Position numbers and translations under genes: made by a program. Positions 1,383-39,739 of a stretch of DNA of 64,000 bases are shown in pieces. The stretch covers positions 1 through 64,000 of the IMG/VR virus record IMGVR_UViG_3300036803_000072; one strand, 5' to 3'. Below the pieces are notes generated by a model. The model searched no databases. It had not been told where the DNA came from and was given only the letters and a program-made list of their open reading frames with translations. The DNA is from a virus (taxonomy: Duplodnaviria > Caudoviricetes). How positions within the stretch are numbered: the first letter of the stretch is position 1; the number at the start of each line of letters is the position of its first letter.

Positions 1383-1949
1383 CTCGTCGTCCTGCGGGTC
1401 GCCCGGCCTGCGGTCTCCGAACCCGCACGCGTTGATGAGCTCCTCGCCCGCACGGAGCACGTAGGCGTCCTGACGGCCGAACACGCGATGCACTGCCACC
1501 GCCACCTCGGTGGCGCCCAGTGCGGCCAGCAACTCGGGGTCATCGAACGTGCCCGTCATCGGCAGGTAGTCGCCGTCACCCTGGAGCACGCCGATCTCTT
1601 TGGTCTGCTCGCCGATGAGCAGGGCGTACATCACGACCTCGTCGATCTTGCGCGGGTCCGGGCGCATCTTCTTACGCTGCGCAGGTGGCAGCGCGGCGAT
1701 CTGGATGCGCTTCCAGTCGGATTGCTCCAGCTCCGTCGAGCACGTCAGGCGCAGGTGCTTACCAGGGCCGTAGAGGTAGTGGTCGGTGAACTCGGCCTCG
1801 GCCACCTCCTCGGACGCCTGCGCGGCGGCGCGCAAGTCGTCGAGAGTGGAGCTCACCTTGCCGTTAGCTACCGCTGTACCCGGCGTGTAGGGGTCGTCCA
1901 CGGCGCCCTGGGCGCCCAGCGGGTCATATCGGGTCGTGCCAGTACTCAT
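1371..1949 (-). CDS. Tail assembly chaperone
   Basis: ATG at 1949 with AGGAG RBS. Acidic protein ending DPT*. Positioned between tube and tape measure. Confidence 0.65.
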   Translation of the reverse strand: MSTGTTRYDPLGAQGAVDDPYTPGTAVANGKVSSTLDDLRAAAQASEEVAEAEFTDHYLYGPGKHLRLTCSTELEQSDWKRIQIAALPPAQRKKMRPDPRKIDEVVMYALLIGEQTKEIGVLQGDGDYLPMTGTFDDPELLAALGATEVAVAVHRVFGRQDAYVLRAGEELINACGFGDRRPGDPQDDEDPT

Positions 1950-2050
1950 GTTGGTCTCCTCACGGTTTACGGGCGATCCGGCGCCGACCTCGGCCCGTGA
2001 GGAGACGCCCACTCCGAGATCGGCCCGCATCGCCCGTTAAAGGCGATCGA

Positions 2051-2464
2051 TCAGGTCACGTCACCTACCGAGAACGTGAGCTCATAGGTGGCCGGATCGC
2101 CGCTGTTGGCGTCCACTTCCGGCAGCTTCACGGCCTTCAGCAGTGCGTTGGTGAACACGTCGGGCTTACCGCCGGGGGCGCGGGTCATGTCGCCGAGCAG
2201 CGGCACCTTGGTCACGACCGTGCGCAGAATCCCGACCTGCGCCTTCGCCGTGGTCAACAGCGAGCCGTCAGTGTCGGGATCGTAGGCGTTGGTCAGCACG
2301 ATGTCGCTGACTTCCGGCGGCGCGGCCAGCACATCGGGCACCGTGGCTCCGCCGTCGCGCCACTTCGTGGTGTTCGATGACTTTTCCCCGCCCGTCATCT
2401 TCGTGAACGTGCGGTTACCGAAAGCGGCGCAGGTGACCAGGAACTGGTAGCCGGCGGACTTCAT
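2051..2464 (-). CDS. Tail tube protein (contractile tail)
   Basis: 137 aa with FTKMTGGE...RDGG...IVLTNAYD pattern of gp19-like tubes; directly follows the sheath gene. Confidence 0.75.
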   Translation of the reverse strand: MKSAGYQFLVTCAAFGNRTFTKMTGGEKSSNTTKWRDGGATVPDVLAAPPEVSDIVLTNAYDPDTDGSLLTTAKAQVGILRTVVTKVPLLGDMTRAPGGKPDVFTNALLKAVKLPEVDANSGDPATYELTFSVGDVT

Positions 2465-2473
2465 AGGAGCCTC

Positions 2474-3937
2474 CTAGAACTGCCTGGTGACGCCGACCTT
2501 GGTGACGGTGAGCTCCAGCAGCACGGCCGTCGGGGAAACTCGCACAGCGACAGTGGCACGCACCCGGTTACCGGAGGCCACGTCGCGGGACGGATCGGTG
2601 GTGACCCGGTATCCGGGGTCCACCAGTACCGGCTGGCCACCAGAGTCAATGTCGATCCACGGGTACAGGCCACCCAGCGCCGCCATGGGCTGCACGATGT
2701 TGAGCAGCACGCCCTCGACTCGGGCTAGCAGGTGCCCGCGCGCGTCGATCGTGTCGAACGTCAACGGGTCGATGTTCTCTTGAGCGGCGACCACGATCCG
2801 ATTGATCACGTCGATACCCGTGAGCAGCCTCCAGTTGGGGAGGTCCTCGGACAGCGACCGCCACCCGTAGAGCCGGACCCCGCCGGTGACCGGGAGGATC
2901 GGGTTGACCTTCGCGTCCTCCAACGCGCCGCTGGTGACCAGGTCGAAGATCTGATCGGGGGCGACCACGCTGACCGACTTCGAGCGGTTACCGGCCGGTG
3001 CCTGCCACGGTCCCACGTTGCGGTGCGCCCGGGAGCGCGCCGCTGCCACGTACCCGTCGGGGGGGATGGTGTTCAGGCCACCGAAGGCGTCTCGGATCTG
3101 AACCCACGGCGCGAACAGTCCCGCGTACTCCGAGGCGTACGACGCGGCCAGGGTGGACAGCTGTGTGGTGCCGGCGCCGCGCGCCGAAACCAGGATGGCC
3201 ATGCGGTTGTGGGTGCGGGCGTGCGCGATCAGACCCGCATGGGTAGTGTCCCCGCCACCGGGGATCGCCACACAACCATCCCCGAACTGGGTACCGAAGC
3301 GATCCAGCGCGGCGACCAGCGCAGTGGAGTTGACCGAGGACCGGTCATCGGCACCGGCGGCCAACGCAACAGGGCTCCCGGTAACGGCCGGGTTGTTGTT
3401 GGGGGCGACGGTGACACTGGCCAGGTCGGTGGGCACCACCCATGCCGACCCGGACATCTTCGCAATGGCGTCCTGGGGGCTGACCAGGTTCGCGTACCGC
3501 TCCATCTCGATACCGAGGTAGGCGACCGAGACGGTGAACGTGTTGGGCACGGTGCCGGCGAGGATGGCGATCGTCACGTCCGAGGACCACGAGCCGGGGC
3601 CCTTCGCTGCGAAAGACAGCGTGGGCAACGGTGTGCCCGCGCGGTCGTTCAGGGGCGTGGCCAGGGCGCCGGAAGTGGCGGCCGGACCGACCACGCGGGC
3701 GATGTAGGCCTCGGCGCCGCCCTCGGCGAAGAACGTCGCGATGTCGTCATAGAGGTTGCCGTAGCTCGGTCGCGTCCCGTAGGTGGCCTCGAACTCCGCC
3801 ACACTGGTCACTCGGGTTACGGCAGTGGATGAACCGCGCGCGGCCAGGCCCACCACGAAATAGGACGCGGACGGCACAGGGAGGGGAAACAGCGATCCGG
3901 CTGCGGCGGTCCGAGTAACCGTGACGCCTACCGTCAT
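2474..3937 (-). CDS. Tail sheath protein
   Basis: Sheath motifs VTSVAEFEATYG, FFAEGG, PPDGYVAA, GPWQAPAG, KVNPI, VRLYGWRSL. Confidence 0.92.
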   Translation of the reverse strand: MTVGVTVTRTAAAGSLFPLPVPSASYFVVGLAARGSSTAVTRVTSVAEFEATYGTRPSYGNLYDDIATFFAEGGAEAYIARVVGPAATSGALATPLNDRAGTPLPTLSFAAKGPGSWSSDVTIAILAGTVPNTFTVSVAYLGIEMERYANLVSPQDAIAKMSGSAWVVPTDLASVTVAPNNNPAVTGSPVALAAGADDRSSVNSTALVAALDRFGTQFGDGCVAIPGGGDTTHAGLIAHARTHNRMAILVSARGAGTTQLSTLAASYASEYAGLFAPWVQIRDAFGGLNTIPPDGYVAAARSRAHRNVGPWQAPAGNRSKSVSVVAPDQIFDLVTSGALEDAKVNPILPVTGGVRLYGWRSLSEDLPNWRLLTGIDVINRIVVAAQENIDPLTFDTIDARGHLLARVEGVLLNIVQPMAALGGLYPWIDIDSGGQPVLVDPGYRVTTDPSRDVASGNRVRATVAVRVSPTAVLLELTVTKVGVTRQF

Positions 3938-7738: not shown

Positions 7739-7763
7739 GACCGGAACACGGGTCAGAGTATCA
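7739..7763 (-). promoter_or_regulatory. Conserved phage motif, extended -10 + TGTTCCGGTC
   Basis: TGA TACTCT gacccg TGTTCCGGTC upstream of the YdjM-like gene. Confidence 0.7.
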
Positions 7764-31751: not shown

Positions 31752-32059
31752 AATACCATTCCGGCAACTACGTCGGCGCTGACGAGATCGGTGCGTGGCT
31801 TGGCCGCTCCGGTGCGTGGATTCGACTGCTGCGACAGCAAGACAGCAAATACGCAATTCCCTGCCCCGTGCCACTGCCCGAACCGGACATGCTCACCGAG
31901 AAGCGCCGCCGACGCGGGGAAAGCATCGCGTTGTGGCGTCGTGATCGCCTGCCCGAGTTTGAGGAGTGGTTCCGGGCGCACGTCCGCACGCTGGCCGAGC
32001 AGGAGATCGCCACCATGGAAGCCAACGTGGCCCGCATGAAGCAGACGGAGACATCGTGA
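31748..32059 (+). CDS. Small putative HTH DNA-binding protein
   Basis: YVGADEIGAWLGRS...P.PD...LWRRD.L.EFEEW resembles excisionase/MerR-like winged HTH; coupled to dnaE. Confidence 0.55.
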   Translation: MKYHSGNYVGADEIGAWLGRSGAWIRLLRQQDSKYAIPCPVPLPEPDMLTEKRRRRGESIALWRRDRLPEFEEWFRAHVRTLAEQEIATMEANVARMKQTETS

Positions 32060-35000
32060 CCAGCTCGTTTGTTCATTGCCACGTCCATTCGGACTGCTCC
32101 ATGCTCGACGGCGCCGCCCGACTGCCCGACCTGATGACCGAAGCAGTCCGGCTCGGCATGCCCGCACTGGCCATCACCGACCACGGCAACGTCTTCGGCG
32201 CCTACGACTTCTGGAAAGCGGCCCGCGCCGCCGGCATCAACCCGATCATCGGCATGGAAGGCTACGTCGCCCCCGGCTCCCGGCACGAACGCACCCGCGC
32301 CACCCTGGACGGGACGACGGTCGATGACTCGAACCCCGGCGAGATGTACACCCACATGACGTTGCTCGCCGAGACCACCGAGGGCATGGGCAACCTGTTT
32401 CGACTGTCGTCACTGGCCAGCCTGGAAGGCTTCTACTACAAACCGCGCATGGACCGGGAGCTGCTCGAAACCTACTCGAAGGGGATCATCGCCACCACCG
32501 GATGCCCATCCGGGGAGGTCAACCGCCTCTTGCAGCGCGGCGACTATAAAGCCGCATGCCAGGCCGCCAGCGACTACCGCGACATCTTCGGGGCCGAGAA
32601 CTACTACTGCGAGCTCATGGATCACGGCATCGATGTCGAGCGCGGCGTCAAGCGAGACCTGATGCGACTCGCCCATGATCTGAACCTGCCGCTGCTGGCG
32701 ACCAACGACCTGCACTACGTGCGCGCACAGGACGCGAAGCCACACGACGCACTGCTGTGTGTCCAGACTAAGAAGACCATCGCCGACCAGAACAGGTTCC
32801 GTTTCGAGGGGCAGGAGTTCTACCTAAAGTCCGCCGAACAGATGCGGGCACTGTTCGATGACGGCGACTTCCCGGGGGCGTGCGACAACACGCTCGCCAT
32901 CGCGGCCCGCTGCCACGTCGAGTTCGACGAGGGCGCCGACCTCATGCCCCGGTTCCCGGTACCTGATGGCGAGACCGAGGCCAGCTGGCTTCTCAAGGAA
33001 GTTAACCTCGGTCTCGCCCGTCGCCTTCCCCGCGACGTCCCCGCAGAATACCGCGCCCGGCTCGATGCCGAGCTCGACCTGATTCTGCGCATGGGCTACT
33101 CCGGTTACTTCCTGGTCACCGCCGACTTGATCCGTCACGCGAAGTCCATCGGCATCCGCGTCGGACCCGGTCGTGGCTCTGTCGTCGGCTCCCTGGTCGC
33201 CTACGCCCTGGGCATCACCGAACTGGACCCGATCGTTCACCGTCTGCTGTTCGAGCGGTTCCTGAACCCGGAGCGACCCTCGACGCCCGACATCGACCTC
33301 GACTTCGACGAACGCCGCCGAGGCGAAGTGATCGACTATGTTACCGGCAAATACGGTGCCGACCGGGTCGCCCAGATCGTCACCTACTCCACGATCAAAG
33401 CCCGCGCGGCGGTGAAAGACGCAGCGAAAGTCCTGCACGGGGCAGCCGGTTTCGCCCTCGCCGACCGGATCAGCAAGGCCATGCCCCCGCCGATCATGGG
33501 CAAGGACATCCCGTTGACCGGCATCTTCGACCCCGACCACAAGCGGTACGGCGAGTCGGCCGCCGTGCGCGCCCTGTACGACAACGACGCGCAGGTCAAA
33601 GAGGTCATCGACACGGCGCGCGGACTGGAGGGCCTGAAGCGGCAGTGGGGAGTGCACGCCGCTGGTGTCATCGTTTCCCGCCTCCCCCTGCTCGATGTTG
33701 TCCCCATCCACCGGCGCCCAGCCGACGGGGCGATCATCACTCAGTTCGACATGTGGGCGTGCGAAGCCCTCGGTCTGGTCAAAATGGACTTCCTGGGTTT
33801 ACGGAACCTGACGATCATTGACGATTGCCTGGCGGGGATCGCAGCCAGCGGCAAACCCGTCCCCCTACTGGAGACCTTGCCGCTGGATGACCCCGGCGTC
33901 TACCAGCTGCTCGCGCGCGGCGACACCCTGGGCGTCTTCCAGCTCGACAGCGGCCCCATCCGTGACCTACTGCGCAAGATGGGGCCAACCCACTTCGGGG
34001 ACATCTCCGCCTGCAACGCCCTGTACCGGCCCGGGCCGATGGCGGCCAACGCGCACAACGACTACGCCGACCGGAAAAATCACCGACAGCCGGTCAAACC
34101 CATCCACCCGGAGCTCGCCGAGCCACTGGCCGACATCCTCGACGAAACCTATGGCCTGATTGTCTACCAGGAGCAGGTACTGGCCATCGCCCAACGGGTC
34201 GCCGGGTACTCCCTGGGGCGGGCGGATCTGCTGCGCAAGGCGATGGGTAAAAAGATCCGGGCGGTGCTCGACCGAGAATACGGGCCCTTCGCTGACGGCA
34301 TGGCGGCCTCCGGCTACTCCCCAGGCGCTGTCAAGGCGCTGTGGGACATCCTGATCCCGTTCTCCGACTACGCGTTCAACCGAGCCCATACCGCAGCCTA
34401 CGGGCTGATCGGCTACTGGACGGCGTACCTGAAAGTGCATCACCCTGTGGAATACATGGCGGCCCTGCTCACCAGTGTCGGTGACGACAAAGACCGCAGC
34501 GCGATCTACCTGGCGGAGTGCCGCCACATGGGCATCACCGTGCTGGTGCCCGATGTGAACGCCTCGGGTGCGCACTTCACTGCCGACGGCGTCGACATCC
34601 GCTTCGGCCTCTCGGCGGTGCGCAACGTCGGGGCGGGCGCGGTCGAAGCGATCATCGCCGGTCGAGTCGACGGCCCGTACACCAGCATCGCCGACTTCCT
34701 GCGCCGAGTACCCGCTTCGGCGTGCAACAAGGGCGCGGTCGAGTCCCTGATCAAAGCGGGCGCGTTCGACTCCCTGGGATACGCACGCTGCGGCCTGCAC
34801 GGTGCGTGCGCGGCGGTGATCGCAGCCGCGCGACCGAAAGGCAAACGGGCCGGGCAGGGTGACCTGTTCGCCGAAGGCGCGTTCGACGTCGACATTCCCA
34901 CCGCACAGTGGGACACCCCGGTCCAGCTCGCCCACGAGCGCGACATGCTCGGCCTCTACGTCTCCGCCCACCCCCTCGACAGCGTTGCCCCGATGCTGGC

Positions 35001-35535
35001 GACACAAGGGGGCACGCCCATCACCGCGATCCTCGACGGCACCGTGCCCGGCGGCGGGGAAGCGGTCGTGACCGGCATGCTCACCGACGTCAAGCGCGGG
35101 GTGACCAGGGGCAAGGGCGAACCGTGGGCGAAAGCGCGACTGGAGGACCTGGCGGCCGGCATTGAGGTGCTGTTCTTCCCGAAAACCTATGCGGTGGTCG
35201 GTGAGCACGTGACCGATGACGCGATTGTGGTGCTCAAGGTGAAGGTGTCGACGAAAGATGATCGGATCGCTCTGTTCGTCACCGACCTGATCGTGCCGGA
35301 ACTACCGACGTCGAGCGCAGTGCCGCCGCTGGAGTTGGGGATCGCCGCCGGTGACTGCACACCGAAACTGTTGGCGCAGCTTACGACAGCACTGGCGGCC
35401 AACCCAGGGAATAGTGAGGTGTGGCTGCGGCTGGCCGGACCGGGCGGAGTTCACCGGCTGCGCCTGCCGGGGGGGCTGCGGGTCGATCCGTCGGTGGCCC
35501 GGAATATAGGTCACCTTCCTGTATCAATCGGATGA
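32056..35535 (+). CDS. dnaE: DNA polymerase III alpha subunit
   Basis: PHP domain HCHVHSDCSMLDG, GPGRGS, catalytic PDIDLDF, HAAGV, KMDFLGL, YAFNRAH, clamp-binding QGDLF and OB fold; GTG 32056 with GGAG RBS; no intein. Confidence 0.97.
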   Translation: MTSSFVHCHVHSDCSMLDGAARLPDLMTEAVRLGMPALAITDHGNVFGAYDFWKAARAAGINPIIGMEGYVAPGSRHERTRATLDGTTVDDSNPGEMYTHMTLLAETTEGMGNLFRLSSLASLEGFYYKPRMDRELLETYSKGIIATTGCPSGEVNRLLQRGDYKAACQAASDYRDIFGAENYYCELMDHGIDVERGVKRDLMRLAHDLNLPLLATNDLHYVRAQDAKPHDALLCVQTKKTIADQNRFRFEGQEFYLKSAEQMRALFDDGDFPGACDNTLAIAARCHVEFDEGADLMPRFPVPDGETEASWLLKEVNLGLARRLPRDVPAEYRARLDAELDLILRMGYSGYFLVTADLIRHAKSIGIRVGPGRGSVVGSLVAYALGITELDPIVHRLLFERFLNPERPSTPDIDLDFDERRRGEVIDYVTGKYGADRVAQIVTYSTIKARAAVKDAAKVLHGAAGFALADRISKAMPPPIMGKDIPLTGIFDPDHKRYGESAAVRALYDNDAQVKEVIDTARGLEGLKRQWGVHAAGVIVSRLPLLDVVPIHRRPADGAIITQFDMWACEALGLVKMDFLGLRNLTIIDDCLAGIAASGKPVPLLETLPLDDPGVYQLLARGDTLGVFQLDSGPIRDLLRKMGPTHFGDISACNALYRPGPMAANAHNDYADRKNHRQPVKPIHPELAEPLADILDETYGLIVYQEQVLAIAQRVAGYSLGRADLLRKAMGKKIRAVLDREYGPFADGMAASGYSPGAVKALWDILIPFSDYAFNRAHTAAYGLIGYWTAYLKVHHPVEYMAALLTSVGDDKDRSAIYLAECRHMGITVLVPDVNASGAHFTADGVDIRFGLSAVRNVGAGAVEAIIAGRVDGPYTSIADFLRRVPASACNKGAVESLIKAGAFDSLGYARCGLHGACAAVIAAARPKGKRAGQGDLFAEGAFDVDIPTAQWDTPVQLAHERDMLGLYVSAHPLDSVAPMLATQGGTPITAILDGTVPGGGEAVVTGMLTDVKRGVTRGKGEPWAKARLEDLAAGIEVLFFPKTYAVVGEHVTDDAIVVLKVKVSTKDDRIALFVTDLIVPELPTSSAVPPLELGIAAGDCTPKLLAQLTTALAANPGNSEVWLRLAGPGGVHRLRLPGGLRVDPSVARNIGHLPVSIG

Positions 35536-35701
35536 GCTGCGGCATCAGGATAGTGTCGACCATCCGAGCGAAATGCCATTCCTCGCACCATCTTTGCGCG
35601 CTCCTGACCATCATCGGCCCGTTGGGAGCCTTCAGCCAGACCTCCTCACTGGGCGGAAGGTCATGGAAGGGGCACTCCTGTGCCTCGTCAGACGTGGTCA
35701 T
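35381..35701 (-). CDS. Hypothetical protein
   Basis: ATGA-coupled to the MuF stop; its 3' end overlaps the dnaE 3' end in antisense. Confidence 0.4.
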   Translation of the reverse strand: MTTSDEAQECPFHDLPPSEEVWLKAPNGPMMVRSAQRWCEEWHFARMVDTILMPQLIRLIQEGDLYSGPPTDRPAAPPAGAAGELRPVRPAAATPHYSLGWPPVLS

Positions 35702-38025
35702 GCTGCCAGGGTAGGCGCCACCACAGGCTGCGCCACCACCTGACCGGCGCTGACCGAGGCGACAGCCAGGGTCACTCCGGCTGTCAAGATCACCGCGCCG
35801 CCCAGCACACCGACGGCCATGCCGGCAGGGATCGCCACGGCCAACACGGTCGCCCCCGCGACGGCCGGGGGTGCCAGGGCCAGGGCCAGGGCGCCCGGCC
35901 AGGACAGCTGTTGACCGGGCTCCACCGGGACGGAATCCATGCGTCGGTAGGCGACCACAGGGGCGGGCACGGTCACCTGCGGTGCCGCTGCCGCGTGCAA
36001 CTCCGGCGCCCCCTCGGTCCAGCCGTCCTGGCGCTGGGCCAGGAGTTGCCGTGCGGCAGCCGGCGTGCCGGCCTTCACCAGGGCCAGGGCCTTGCGTTTG
36101 TCCACCGACGGCGGCGCGAAGATCAGAGAGCATCGGCAGTTGCGTGATACTATGCCCTCTGCTAAGTAAACCCCTGTTCCGGTCTGGAGGGTATAAACGT
36201 GGCCACTGAACGCGCTCCGGTGAATCTCGATCACCTCATCGAGCTCTACCGATCCGGCCAGAGTCCGGCAAGCATCGGCGAGCAGCTCGGCATACCGGGC
36301 CCCACCGTCCGAGGTCAACTGGTCCGCGCTGGCGAACCCTTGCGTGGTCGTGGAAGCGCGTGGCGTCATCGCAAGGGTTTCCAGGTGCTCGATGCCGAGA
36401 AGTTGGCCGCTCGCTATCTCGCAGGCGAGTCGGAGCAGGCGATCGCTCACAGCCTCGGCATCTCTCGCGGAGTCGTCCGACGCCACCTCCTCGGAGCCGG
36501 TATCCAGCCGCGCGGTCGAGGTGACGCAATGCGTGTCCGCTGGTCTGGCCTGGATGATGCTGGGCGCACTGCCTTGGTGGCTGATGCCCACGCCGCTACT
36601 CGCGGCATCCCGCAGTCCGAGCTGCATCGCAGCAGAATCGCCACCGGACGTAGAGACCTCGAATGCTTCACTTCGCCATGGGAGACCGCTCTGGGAATCA
36701 TGCTGGCGGAACGAGGCATGGCGACCGAACCGCAGCGGGCGGTCGGTCGCTACAACATCGACCTCGCCTGTTGGCCGGTCGCCGTAGAAGTCCACCGCCA
36801 CACGGCCTATCCGCCGTGCTGGCAGGCCAGCGCCGATCGCATCATGCACCTTCTCGATCAGGGCTGGCGAACCCTCTACGTGTGGATCAGTCCCCGCCGA
36901 GACGTTCTGACCCCGGCGTGCGCCGACCACATAGTCACCCTCGTGCAACTCGCCCAGTCCAACCCAGCCTCGTTCGGTGAGTATCGGGTGATTCGGAGTA
37001 CCGGTGAGGATGCGACCCGACGTAGTGCAGATAGTGACAACGTCGCCGACATAGGGAGCCCGGAATGATCCCTCGACATCCGGCGCGCTCACCTCAGTTC
37101 CGGCGATAAAGCAGTTCGCCACCTCCCGGATACCTTCCGGGAGCACGGCGGGGTCGGCGGGGAACCGCAGCCGGAACGCCCCGACCTGAAACTTCCCGTC
37201 CACCGGACGGACCTGTCCATCGGCCGTGCGATGGGTCTCCCGGACCCTGGGATCACGCTTGGACAGCCACTGGGTGTGGGTGACGCCCATGGCACGGGCA
37301 GCAGCCAGAGCAGCGTCACCGGCCAGCGCGGTCGCTAGAGTGCGGCCATACATCAGCAACCAGTTCCCGCCGCGCCGCTGCGCCTCCAAGATTCGATCTA
37401 TGACCTGATCGAGGCTCTCCGCACTGGAGTCTGCCGCCAGAATCTCTCGGCGGATATCTCTGGCGTGACGTTCTGCGACATCCGCCATGGCAGCTACGGC
37501 CGAGTCCACCGCCGCTTCGACAGTCGCCCGGTCGAACGCAGCGAGCCCAACGTTGGGGCGACCGAGGGACTTCGCGACTCCGCCAGCAGCGTCGGCGACG
37601 ATACGCAAGCCGACGGGGCGGACCGCCTTACCGATCTCGTCGACAGTCCGCTCGGGCAGGATGTAGGTAGCGTCAAGGGTTTTGTACTCCAGCCCGGCCC
37701 CCTGTCCTGTAAGAGAGTCCAGCCCACCCCCTTGAGATACTTCGACCCCGACTTTCACCTGATCAGACCAGAATCTGGTGTGCTTGCGTGCCTTGGGGCC
37801 ACGCAGGCGCGCCTCCACTACACCGGCCACACGCTCGTTGTAGGACTTAATAACTGATTCCATCAGTTCCACAGCCCGGTCGACCCGGGCGGCGCCATCG
37901 TCAGCCAGCTTGTCCCGGATCTCCCCATGCGGCGGGTCCGGCAGCGCCTCGTGCACCATCGCGGTAGCTAGCGGGAGGGCGGGCAGCTCATCGGCGCCCA
38001 GAGGGTCGCGCGCGGCCCTGCTCAC
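35698..38025 (-). CDS. MuF-like minor head protein containing an intein
   Basis: QWLSKRDPRVRETH...DG...FQVG...LRFPADP...AN|CRC MuF signature split by the intein; adjacent to the portal. Confidence 0.88.
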   Translation of the reverse strand: MSRAARDPLGADELPALPLATAMVHEALPDPPHGEIRDKLADDGAARVDRAVELMESVIKSYNERVAGVVEARLRGPKARKHTRFWSDQVKVGVEVSQGGGLDSLTGQGAGLEYKTLDATYILPERTVDEIGKAVRPVGLRIVADAAGGVAKSLGRPNVGLAAFDRATVEAAVDSAVAAMADVAERHARDIRREILAADSSAESLDQVIDRILEAQRRGGNWLLMYGRTLATALAGDAALAAARAMGVTHTQWLSKRDPRVRETHRTADGQVRPVDGKFQVGAFRLRFPADPAVLPEGIREVANCFIAGTEVSAPDVEGSFRAPYVGDVVTICTTSGRILTGTPNHPILTERGWVGLGELHEGDYVVGARRGQNVSAGTDPHVEGSPALIEKVHDAIGAGLPARRIGRVAVDFYGDRPTGEVDVVATDRPLRFGRHASFRQHDSQSGLPWRSEAFEVSTSGGDSAAMQLGLRDAASSGVGISHQGSAPSIIQARPADTHCVTSTARLDTGSEEVASDDSARDAEAVSDRLLRLACEIASGQLLGIEHLETLAMTPRASTTTQGFASADQLTSDGGARYAELLADACRTLAGSVELDEVIEIHRSAFSGHVYTLQTGTGVYLAEGIVSRNCRCSLIFAPPSVDKRKALALVKAGTPAAARQLLAQRQDGWTEGAPELHAAAAPQVTVPAPVVAYRRMDSVPVEPGQQLSWPGALALALAPPAVAGATVLAVAIPAGMAVGVLGGAVILTAGVTLAVASVSAGQVVAQPVVAPTLAA
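36160..36190 (+). promoter_or_regulatory. Phage motif variant + RBS for the antisense endonuclease
   Basis: TGC TAAGTA aacccc TGTTCCGGTC, then GGAGG (36186-90) 8 nt before GTG 36199. A second extended -10, TGaTACTAT, lies at 36145-53. Confidence 0.6.
36199..37068 (+). CDS. HTH-repeat + DUF559/Vsr-like PD-(D/E)xK endonuclease, nested antisense in the intein
   Basis: Two HTH repeats (LYRSGQS...LGI...VRGQL; YLAGES...LGISRGVVRRHL) and E..L..ML.E.G....Q..VGRYNIDLA...VAVEVH; strong RBS. Confidence 0.85.
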   Translation: MATERAPVNLDHLIELYRSGQSPASIGEQLGIPGPTVRGQLVRAGEPLRGRGSAWRHRKGFQVLDAEKLAARYLAGESEQAIAHSLGISRGVVRRHLLGAGIQPRGRGDAMRVRWSGLDDAGRTALVADAHAATRGIPQSELHRSRIATGRRDLECFTSPWETALGIMLAERGMATEPQRAVGRYNIDLACWPVAVEVHRHTAYPPCWQASADRIMHLLDQGWRTLYVWISPRRDVLTPACADHIVTLVQLAQSNPASFGEYRVIRSTGEDATRRSADSDNVADIGSPE

Positions 38026-39679
38026 CCTCCAGCTCTAGGACTTTGGTTTGCGCCCCGGCCAGTTGCCCGCCGCCGCGATCGGCTTGCACGAGCGCCCGCT
38101 GGCCACCGGCACTGCCGTCGGCCGGGTCGGCGTTGGGGTCGCCATCGGACGGAATGTCCTGCCCGGAGCCCATGAGATCAGCGGACGGGTCGACCCCGAA
38201 ACCGGGCGGTAGGGAGTTGGGCACCCCGACCCCGCCGGGTAGCGAACCGGCGGCCGGCGGCGCGGGTGGCTGGCCACCCATGGGGGCTTTGCCCGCAGCA
38301 TCGGCGTCCCCATCGTGGGCGGGCTGATCGTCGGCGATGGCCAGGCGACCGGCCGGGATCCACAGCACACGGGAACCGGGAACGTCCCACGGGTCGAGCT
38401 CTTTGACTTCCCGGTACTCATCGATGGTGATGGCGCCACGGTCTAGGTCGGCAGCGGCCCGGTCCTCTCGCGCGCGCTTGTAGCGGCCGAGCACCCACAC
38501 GTCGGATACGTCGTGGGCGAGATAGGAGTCATCATCGAACCCACCGGGGGTGATGACGTCGAGCTGGGCATCGAGTAGCCGGAACAGGGGGAGCATGCCG
38601 TGCTCCCACGCTTTGGCGTAGTCGGCGTCGGCGTTATCGAAGGTCTGGCCTGATGAATCGGAGACGACGGACTCGGGGAGGCCGAACGCGACGCAGATCT
38701 CGCGTTTCGTCCGGTCCATGGTGTCGCCCCACTGGGTGTCCCGTGGGTGGCCGGAGGTGTCGATCCAGGAGACTTCGTCGGCTTCGATGACGACGGTGCG
38801 GGCGCCGGAAACGTCGGGGCCCCCGTTGAAACGGTGCTCCAGCATGTCCGCGTAGGCGTCTTCGATGGGGCCCTTGACGGCGGCGATACCGCCGGGGCGG
38901 CCGTCTTCCATCATGAAACGGCGGTTGTAGAGCCGAGCGTACTTATCGAGGTCCGCGCTCAGCCCGGCGGCCTCCATGGGCGACATGCCGCGCTCGAAGA
39001 TCGTGGGATGGGGGGAGCGCACCCACACGATGCCGCTGGGTTGGTCTTCAGGTGTGGCGTCCGGGTCGAACGGGGGGCGCCATTGCCACATCGGGGAGCC
39101 GTCGGCTACGGCGGTGGTGATGCGAAACGATTCGATGGGGGTGACGACGCCGCGCTCGTTCGGATCACTGGGGTTGATCTTGCGGCGACCGGGCACCGGC
39201 AGTACTCGATCGGGGTCCAAGAGGTACACCGAATGGATGCCGCCACCGCGCGATCGGACGGCTTCGACGAACACGCCCCGGCTCGACAGCATGAACTGGG
39301 CGATCAGCCGGTGCCGGAAGATCTGGGCAACTTCCCATTCGTTGGCGCGCCGATTCAGCCTGCGCAGTAACCGGACCTGGTCGCGACTGAGCTGCCCCGG
39401 CTCAATGATCGGGCCGGTGTCAGGATCCTCCCGGCGCAGCACGATACGTCGAGCCCGTTCGTTGGCCGCGACAAACTCGACGCACCGGAAAATGTAGGGG
39501 TTGAGGGTGTACCCCTCGGTGACCGCACGGTCGGTGTTCCACTCGGTCTGGTAGGGCTGACCGGGAACGATGTAGCCGCGCGGGCCGGACACGATGCGGG
39601 AATCCAGGCCGCCCTGGGACGTAGCGCCGGTGGCGAATCGCTGACGCAGGGCGGGGAACCACTTCGCGCTGCGGGCCAC
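37988..39679 (-). CDS. Portal protein (HK97 family)
   Basis: YIFRCV, VYLLDPDRV, GMSPMEAA, EDGRPGGI, REICVAFGLP, TFDNA, ITIDEYR; GTG 39679 follows GGAGGTG (alternative start 39718). Confidence 0.92.
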   Translation of the reverse strand: MARSAKWFPALRQRFATGATSQGGLDSRIVSGPRGYIVPGQPYQTEWNTDRAVTEGYTLNPYIFRCVEFVAANERARRIVLRREDPDTGPIIEPGQLSRDQVRLLRRLNRRANEWEVAQIFRHRLIAQFMLSSRGVFVEAVRSRGGGIHSVYLLDPDRVLPVPGRRKINPSDPNERGVVTPIESFRITTAVADGSPMWQWRPPFDPDATPEDQPSGIVWVRSPHPTIFERGMSPMEAAGLSADLDKYARLYNRRFMMEDGRPGGIAAVKGPIEDAYADMLEHRFNGGPDVSGARTVVIEADEVSWIDTSGHPRDTQWGDTMDRTKREICVAFGLPESVVSDSSGQTFDNADADYAKAWEHGMLPLFRLLDAQLDVITPGGFDDDSYLAHDVSDVWVLGRYKRAREDRAAADLDRGAITIDEYREVKELDPWDVPGSRVLWIPAGRLAIADDQPAHDGDADAAGKAPMGGQPPAPPAAGSLPGGVGVPNSLPPGFGVDPSADLMGSGQDIPSDGDPNADPADGSAGGQRALVQADRGGGQLAGAQTKVLELEGEQGRARPSGRR

Positions 39680-39739
39680 GCTCACCTCCGTAAAGATCGG
39701 GCGAGCCAATCTAGCCACGGACAGTGTCGTGAAATGGGG

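Follow-up and report, generated by a model that had tools for sequence, protein, structure and literature searches.

A putative Vsr-fold endonuclease gene antisense to, and in codon register with, a MuF intein in a metagenomic soil phage

Inteins with an endonuclease gene on the opposite strand have already been reported from actinophages. In a survey of 784 actinophage inteins from PhagesDB, Gosselin, Arsenault and Gogarten (bioRxiv 10.1101/2025.01.02.630785, version Oct 2025) recognized, according to the available parts of the preprint, 63 inteins with non-canonical endonucleases, including full inteins with an 'anti-sense VSR-like' homing endonuclease (HEN). According to the same parts, the inteins of minor capsid genes carried non-canonical endonucleases only, the VSR-like cases were mostly vertical in pattern, and invasion by free-standing endonuclease genes was proposed. 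The locus described here lies in a 64,000-nucleotide stretch (the window) of the IMG/VR virus record IMGVR_UViG_3300036803_000072. In it the gene of a MuF-like minor capsid protein contains an intein, and the opposite strand of this intein contains an open reading frame (ORF) for a putative endonuclease with two helix-turn-helix (HTH) units and a Vsr fold. The window is part of a 77-kb record, and near-identical DNA is present in soil metagenome runs. A preliminary description of this DNA left open whether such an architecture had been reported. It has been, and the locus appears as a member of an old, shared composite and not as a one-off; the window adds to the published cases a metagenomic soil-phage member.

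Related arrangements are known from several other systems. The Vsr-like family was defined by Dassa et al. (2009, PMC2677866) in split-intein fractured genes, mostly phage-borne. Also in these a separately translated Vsr-related gene lies between the N- and C-terminal splicing parts, but the parts are two trans-splicing ORFs, whereas in the window one continuous ORF runs through the antisense of the endonuclease gene. A search of the text of that paper for antisense, reverse or complementary-strand cases found none, the three uses of 'opposite' referring to charges. I-Bth0305I (Taylor et al. 2011, PMC3239194, PDB 3R3P), the characterised prototype of the EDxHD homing endonucleases, resembles the protein in the window in its C-terminal Vsr-fold domain, its modular N-terminal DNA-binding region, its phage origin and its association with a self-splicing element. 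However, it resides in a recA group I intron, and the window protein has Tyr where the conserved His stands. The DnaX intein of Synechocystis and the SpoVR-like intein of Chloroflexus have a homing endonuclease opposite a continuous intein ORF, but one of the LAGLIDADG family, in other host genes and in cellular genomes; anti-sense LAGLIDADG cases (Gorbalenya 1998; Gogarten 2002) are cited in the available parts of the preprint. Finally, 'large inteins' are known from capsid morphogenesis genes of the Guernseyvirinae, for example in E. coli phage Snoke (PMC6776784). Their site is the same MuF site, with the intein present in Snoke and LSPA1 and absent from K1ind2. In the accessible portions of these reports the intein alone is annotated and the antisense endonuclease gene goes unmentioned, but the loci of Salmonella phage demigod and Pantoea phage AH01, both of this group, have the antisense ORF.

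As far as the actinophage inteins are described in the available parts of the preprint, the locus in the window agrees with them in its continuous MuF intein, its antisense endonuclease ORF, the lack of a recognisable fold in the in-frame interior and the helical N-terminal region ahead of the Vsr fold. This fold covers residues 144-267 or thereabouts in the actinophage case (Z 10.6 against Vsr) and residues 156-273 here (Z 11.1). Beyond the layout described there, the ORF in the window overlaps intein blocks B and F. Absent from the same parts of the preprint are an account of the codon register and of the reach of the ORF into Hint blocks B and F, a start codon opposite the block F His codon, tests of selection in two frames and an occurrence in phages of Salmonella, Klebsiella, Pseudomonas, Aggregatibacter or Idiomarinaceae. 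The literature searched contained none of the following: the composite in phages of proteobacteria, its constant register and start codon, tests of selection on both frames, statistics of stop avoidance, the free-standing form in phage BUCT629 and the co-opted promoter signature.

The locus is probably a composite mobile element in the MuF gene, consisting of a class-1-type intein and an antisense gene, in codon register with it, for a two-HTH Vsr-fold endonuclease. The anatomy, the selection on two frames, the presence/absence alleles and the wide distribution were established in this analysis, and the folds were modelled. The parts of the locus are the following.

35698 to 38025, minus strand: gene of a MuF-like minor capsid/head morphogenesis protein, 775-amino-acid (aa) precursor (ORF list, translation, phrog_15127, Pfam Phage_Mu_F)
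37114 to 38025, minus strand: N-extein, aa 1-304, ending ...EVAN (alignment with the intein-free relatives L013/L014)
36139 to 37113, minus strand: intein, 325 aa, Cys305 to Asn629, with Cys630 as the +1 residue (975 bp absent from L013/L014)
36832 to 37113, minus strand: Hint N-terminal lobe, aa 305-398, with block B TPNH at 36988-36999 (AlphaFold2 model, low substitution)
36253 to 36831, minus strand: interior linker of the MuF frame, aa 399-591, without a domain, predicted to be disordered, neutral in the MuF frame
36139 to 36252, minus strand: Hint C-terminal lobe, aa 592-629, with blocks F (GHVYTLQ) and G (...VSRN) (block means 65-82 in pLDDT, a predicted local distance difference test score)
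35698 to 36138, minus strand: C-extein, aa 630-775, beginning CRCSLIF, the conserved MuF NCRC motif (translation, allele alignment)
36199 to 37068, plus strand: antisense gene of the putative endonuclease, 289 aa, GTG start, TGA stop (ORF list, substitution ratios, AlphaFold2 model, tblastn)
36199 to 36201, plus strand: GTG start codon, the reverse complement of the block F His609 codon CAC
36186 to 36190, plus strand: Shine-Dalgarno sequence GGAGG, 8 nt 5' of the GTG, the complement of the block F Leu-Gln codons
36226 to 36495, plus strand: two predicted HTH DNA-binding units, approximately aa 10-43 and 66-99 (Pfam HTH_23/HTH_58, structure 2lvs, helices of the model)
36664 to 37017, plus strand: predicted Vsr-fold (PD-(D/E)xK-type) nuclease domain, aa 156-273 (structure alignment, profile match)

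The MuF-like ORF matched the PHROG head protein family phrog_15127 (E 1.7e-45), and its only Pfam matches were Intein_splicing and Phage_Mu_F, with neither LAGLIDADG nor HNH among them. The Intein_splicing match (PF14890; E 1.1e-5) reached 25.7 bits, under the cut-off of 35.8, and precomputed PF14890 matches were present on several homologs. The intein starts with Cys-Phe-Ile-Ala-Gly and ends with ...VSRN (Arg-Asn), after which comes the +1 Cys of the MuF NCRC motif, the insertion site. Block B covers aa 343-346 (Thr343-Pro-Asn-His346) and block F aa 608-614, and the residues Cys305, Asn345-His346-Pro347, Asn629 and Cys630 were invariant among 20 homologs. The Cys nucleophile, the TxxH of block B, the C-terminal Asn with the +1 Cys and the conserved in-frame insertion site place the intein in the class-1 type. 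From the intact motifs and the likely need of the phage for a working MuF protein we infer that the intein is spliced. Both kinds of alleles were found among the IMG/VR relatives, as the preliminary description had proposed to search for: L009 has a 325-aa insertion at the identical site, and L013 and L014 have a MuF protein of 458 aa reading ...EVAG/CRCGLLF..., lacking exactly 325 codons (975 bp). None of the contigs of four soil-metagenome runs that were placed on 35000-38800 bridges the intein.

The plus-strand ORF sits entirely within the intein, extending from block F to 15 codons after the first Cys. The two frames are codon-aligned, position 1 of the plus frame being position 3 of the minus frame. 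The nuclease domain lies opposite MuF aa 337-454, and approximately 78 codons of the ORF (aa 212-289), about 60 of them in the nuclease fold, lie opposite the folded Hint N-terminal lobe. The overlap extends to individual motifs: the conserved plus-frame motif VIRG, lying in the nuclease's last strand, mirrors block B TPNH and is absent from the free-standing relative in BUCT629; the nuclease core YNIDLA...VAVEV in its turn has a mirror in the conserved stretch of the MuF frame around GDRPxGEVDVV. The preliminary description was thus right about the normal splicing blocks of the MuF intein, the interior without LAGLIDADG or HNH, the complete 289-aa gene wholly inside the intein, the GGAGG 8 nt before the GTG and the exact codon register. 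Its proposal that a free-standing endonuclease had invaded a mini-intein in reverse held in part: a free-standing relative does exist, but a simple insertion into the interior of a mini-intein does not describe the locus, because the ORF reaches block F and lies opposite the Hint N-terminal lobe.

In Pfam the plus-strand ORF matched HTH_58 over the cut-off (E 7e-10) and HTH_23 at 24.5 bits, just under the cut-off of 24.6. The profile of 16 homologs of the plus-strand protein matched the tandem-HTH structure 2lvs (E 6e-7) and the DUF559 endonuclease-like structure 3hrl (E 1.2e-3), and weakly Vsr. The AlphaFold2 model of the protein had a mean pLDDT of 80.7. When its aa 156-273 were aligned with VIA-align, they superposed on Vsr (1cw0_A, Z 11.1, root mean square deviation 2.5, 108 residues; 1vsr, Z 10.2), on I-Bth0305I (3r3p_A, Z 10.0, deviation 3.1, 92 residues) and on 3hrl (Z 9.3); unrelated folds came next, with Z below 7. 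Foldseek with the model of the whole ORF gave weak E-values (3r3p 6.6e-3), as the model is multi-domain, while the VIA-align Z-scores were clear. In the model of the MuF precursor, built with 20 homologs, the Hint lobes were folded (block means mostly 64-90) with a low-pLDDT stretch at aa 371-386 of the N-terminal lobe. The interior, aa 399-591, had pLDDT of approximately 25-39 and was predicted to be disordered, and no endonuclease family or Pfam domain matched it. The models and profiles accordingly agree with the earlier claim of a separate antisense HTH-HTH-PD-(D/E)xK gene with a DUF559/Vsr-like nuclease. The interior that had been called junk appears as a non-conserved, predicted-disordered linker, which splicing would remove with the intein, and an endonuclease match in the minus-strand interior itself, named beforehand as a finding that would count against the proposal, was found in no family.

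Selection was compared between the frames using the window and L009, which are 63% identical in the plus-strand protein; the alignment was made from the MuF-frame proteins and is biased against a plus-frame result. Substitutions per site at MuF-frame positions 1, 2 and 3 were 0.21, 0.21 and 0.57 in the N-extein and 0.21, 0.14 and 0.52 in the Hint C-terminal lobe, both dominated by the third position of the MuF frame. In MuF aa 441-520 they were 0.63, 0.25 and 0.35, the fast position being the third position of the plus frame. The ratio of nonsynonymous to synonymous substitution rates (dN/dS; Nei-Gojobori, NG86), which the preliminary description had suggested to calculate for both frames, was obtained over plus-strand residues 19-211 in five pairs: the plus frame gave 0.23-0.48, the MuF frame 0.98-1.38. 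The plus-strand ORF is thus the frame under selection in the intein interior. In residues 212-288, opposite the Hint N-terminal lobe, dN/dS was 0.3-0.7 in both frames, and the lobe had low substitution at all three codon positions; in this part both frames appear to be constrained. GC content by codon position was also tried as a coding test and was uninformative in this phage of 66% GC, in which GC1 and GC3 are both about 0.70.

The codons that would close the opposite frame gave a second measure. From the codon usage of the flanking genes approximately 3.5 such codons were expected in the overlap of the window (P of none ~0.03), and the single TTA, CTA or TCA seen pairs with the stop codon of the ORF itself. 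These codons form about 4% of the codons of neighbouring genes in three phages of 43-52% GC, where approximately 11 were expected in the overlap, but 0 were present in either frame (P ~1e-5 each). It is therefore selection on both genes, and not GC3, that keeps the two frames open. The earlier explanation, that high GC3 keeps the antisense frame open, stands only partly: GC3 is about 0.70 in the window, but the frame is open also in the relatives with lower GC.

A tblastn search with the plus-strand protein matched 117 phage records, including 62 from phages of Salmonella, 15 of Pseudomonas, 11 of Gordonia and 8 of Klebsiella, with further matches in Aaphi23, S1249, Idiomarinaceae phage 1N2-2 and phages of Cronobacter, Edwardsiella, Pantoea and others. 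In the phiCbK paper Aaphi23 appears for its terminase only. In nine annotated phage loci, with GC from 43 to 68%, the ORF is antisense to the annotated head/MuF gene (Fosterous, Malisha, Aaphi23, KpTDp1, Pseudomonas BR313c, 1N2-2, Rctr197k, Salmonella demigod and Pantoea AH01). All nine had both frames open and an identical register, and the IMG/VR relatives L009-L011 had the same layout. The composite was thereby seen in phages of Gordonia, Salmonella, Pantoea, Klebsiella, Pseudomonas, Aggregatibacter and Idiomarinaceae. The start codon of the endonuclease gene (ATG or GTG) is, in 12 of 13 loci, the exact complement of the block F His codon (CAT or CAC), and in most of these an SD-like (Shine-Dalgarno-like) GGAG or GAGG upstream of the start is the complement of the block F Leu-Gln/Glu codons; phage 1N2-2 is outside the tally of start codons because the motif expression missed its block F. 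The fixed register and start position point to a composite that arose once and then spread among the MuF genes of distant phages. Presence and absence are sporadic among related MuF genes, and the element occurs in both actinobacterial and gammaproteobacterial phages.

Acinetobacter phage BUCT629 (L016) has a free-standing homolog of 311 aa, annotated as a stand-alone gene at 1779-2714 (+). It is convergent with an intein-less MuF gene at 2708-3484 (-), which it overlaps by 7 nt, and the MuF protein ends soon after ...CKCR.... Judged from gene order, this is the layout that would be expected of a free-standing homing endonuclease gene adjoining its target. The BUCT629 form is possibly an ancestral or a derived free version of the element. 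It fits the idea, put forward in the preliminary description and also in the available parts of the preprint of Gosselin et al., of a free-standing gene joining an intein, and evolution may have proceeded in either direction.

Signals for the expression of the ORF lie within the codons of the intein. The following features are concerned.

36160 to 36183, plus strand: one-mismatch copy of a 24-nt promoter-like signature, within the codons of intein blocks F and G
31966 to 35535, plus strand: DNA polymerase III alpha gene, sharing its strand with the antisense ORF and 5' of it

The signature, TGnTAnnnT-N6-YGTTCCGGT, is present in the window in 10 exact copies and the one with a mismatch, with 0.05 expected (positions 7740, 10463, 25875, 30996, 36160, 41693, 49330, 51738, 55596, 58495 and 63047). 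Ten of the 11 copies, that at 36160 included, have an SD-like motif and a start codon 15-30 nt downstream, the GTG of the endonuclease gene being at +15. The signature probably marks the transcription units of the phage. The codons of blocks F and G under it include the rare A/T-ending TTA, ATA, GTA, TCA, GGA and ACA, and an extended -10-like TGnTAnnAT upstream of the ORF is kept in three relatives. A 19-nt stretch upstream of the ORF was not repeated exactly elsewhere in the window, the shared element being the degenerate signature. As the ORF bears a signature common to ten other units of the phage, the uncoupling of homing from late MuF expression that the preliminary description proposed is a possibility only. 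The sequencing runs listed for the stretch are five soil-metagenome DNA runs, available in contig form, and none is an RNA run.

From these features the following course of events can be proposed. The MuF precursor would be translated through the antisense of the endonuclease gene, producing a linker of approximately 190 aa, probably unstructured, between the Hint lobes, and splicing would remove the whole 325 aa and restore the conserved ...N/CRC... motif of MuF. The endonuclease would most likely be made from its own plus-strand transcript, its candidate start signals within the codons of blocks F and G being the promoter-like signature, the GGAGG and the GTG opposite the block F His. In a co-infection it would most likely nick or cut intein-free MuF alleles near the site coding for NCRC, and the repair would then copy in the intein and the endonuclease gene together. 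For the transcription and translation of the ORF, the splicing, the nuclease activity and the target site, this course is deduced from sequence. The locus is a real, interlocked two-strand coding arrangement, neither a chance ORF nor a new category, and most likely it is a homing unit.

Several observations weigh against the homing element. The penultimate residue of the intein is Arg, the usual His being absent. Over the exteins, intein-plus and intein-minus relatives share only about 76% DNA identity, a level that does not demonstrate recent homing. A simple scan of 35500-37600 found neither a sigma-70 consensus promoter nor a terminator between the DNA polymerase III alpha gene and the ORF, and as no terminator was detected, read-through into the ORF is also possible. 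Furthermore, the full EDxHD catalytic set is absent from the window protein. Its Tyr205 (codon 205 of the ORF, 36811-36813) aligns with the His of DGGQH in DUF559, the consensus His of the 3hrl profile, and in several family members the column contains the His of GGxWH. The residue is Tyr in L009, Fosterous and BUCT629, Ala in Jerseyvirus, Asn or Phe elsewhere and His in some. As the canonical His is replaced, the protein was filed as a member of the Vsr-fold superfamily and not as a proven EDxHD enzyme. Judging from its residues, cutting, nicking or mere binding by the protein are each possible, and given the variable His position these enzymes may work by a chemistry other than that of Vsr and I-Bth0305I.

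These catalytic replacements, in many members, together with a purifying selection that yet continues, are what recommends an alternative in which the plus-strand gene is functional but does not home: a domesticated or degenerate Vsr-fold DNA-binder in a vertically inherited intein, serving as a regulator, a nickase with another role or a maturase-like helper. Also the intein-plus and intein-minus alleles found, which are not close relatives, and the mostly vertical patterns given for VSR-like cases in the available parts of bioRxiv 10.1101/2025.01.02.630785 speak for it. However, the metal-binding Asp188 (in YNxD) and Glu197 (in AVE) were invariant in the alignment of 16 and also in all 24 sequences of the larger alignment. 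In addition, that very distant phages carry the element at a single exact and highly conserved position of MuF requires horizontal spread, and the free-standing relative adjoins an intein-less MuF target as homing endonuclease genes do. We regard the domesticated binder as unlikely.

A non-coding origin of the plus-strand ORF, open through base composition and conserved only via the MuF frame, is very improbable. A codon-aligned antisense frame is often open at high GC, the probability of no stop being 0.13-0.63 in the high-GC relatives, but such a by-product would not explain the open frame in the phages of 43-52% GC. Furthermore, the substitution pattern and dN/dS of the interior favour the plus frame over the MuF frame, the significant Pfam HTH match and the confident Vsr fold are found in the plus frame only, and gene callers sometimes choose the plus-strand ORF over MuF. 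That the endonuclease is instead in frame on the MuF strand, as in a canonical intein, and the plus-strand match a mirror artefact, is hardly credible, since the BLASTP matches of the MuF-frame interior to relatives are weaker than the plus-frame ones and concentrated in the Hint lobe or opposite the nuclease core, and the interior, although spanned by PHROG 15127, has no endonuclease family, a pLDDT of about 30 and dN/dS of about 1 or more.

Within the reading of the locus as a composite mobile element, we lean, with some reserve, to the view that the intein and the antisense endonuclease gene form one old, widely shared and physically interlocked mobile unit, and that in this phage the codons of blocks F and G have been recoded with rare codons for the promoter signature. 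The range of this unit would include phages of Actinobacteria, phages of Gammaproteobacteria and uncultured phages. If this is true, the 870-nt overlap is among the longest antisense overlaps demonstrably under dual selection, and it shows a route for the fusion of a free-standing endonuclease gene with an intein that involves no common reading frame. The locus, in which 870 bases encode one protein on each strand and selection can be measured for either, supports the view of intein evolution in which the splicing element came first and the endonuclease later, and it links continuous inteins, the fractured genes of split inteins and free-standing endonuclease genes in one family. As the architecture is already published, the value of the present locus lies in independent confirmation, a wider host range and the detail of the interlocking.

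The overlap affects also the annotation of phage genomes. In the metagenome contigs L018 and L019, 3001-3924 (+), and L020 and L021, 3001-3687 (+), the gene caller took the antisense ORF and left MuF, between the portal and the scaffold/protease genes, uncalled; GenBank phage records show the opposite choice. One of the two overlapping genes is thus routinely missed, and a whole gene has been overlooked by annotation pipelines in many phage genomes, including those of such well-studied phages as Salmonella Jerseyvirus and phages of Klebsiella and Pseudomonas.

Some further observations concern the intein and its host gene. At 37133-37195, immediately upstream of the intein junction, a few short soil-metagenome contigs of relatives match the window in this stretch only, with approximately 85% likeness, and then diverge, the break being near 37133; they may come from MuF alleles that have another intein or lack one. 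Relatives of the Hint N-terminal lobe were found in other host proteins, namely glycoside hydrolase 25, Phage_min_cap2 minor capsid proteins and a zeta-toxin/AAA protein (P0042, P0047, P0053, P0055 and P0063). The coverage of the query was 38-45% in four of them and whole in P0063. Their occurrence suggests that the intein lineage has moved between host genes. On its upstream side the MuF-like gene is adjoined by one further gene.

37988 to 39718, minus strand: portal gene (PHROG portal, E 3e-33)

Intein-bearing MuF homologs (P0038, P0040, P0067, P0070, P0073 and P0039) are sometimes fused to the portal domain PF04860 or to the ADP-ribosyltransferase domain PF03496, and some Jerseyvirus records (Salmonella H63, H68 and H76) call the gene NAD+--asparagine ADP-ribosyltransferase.

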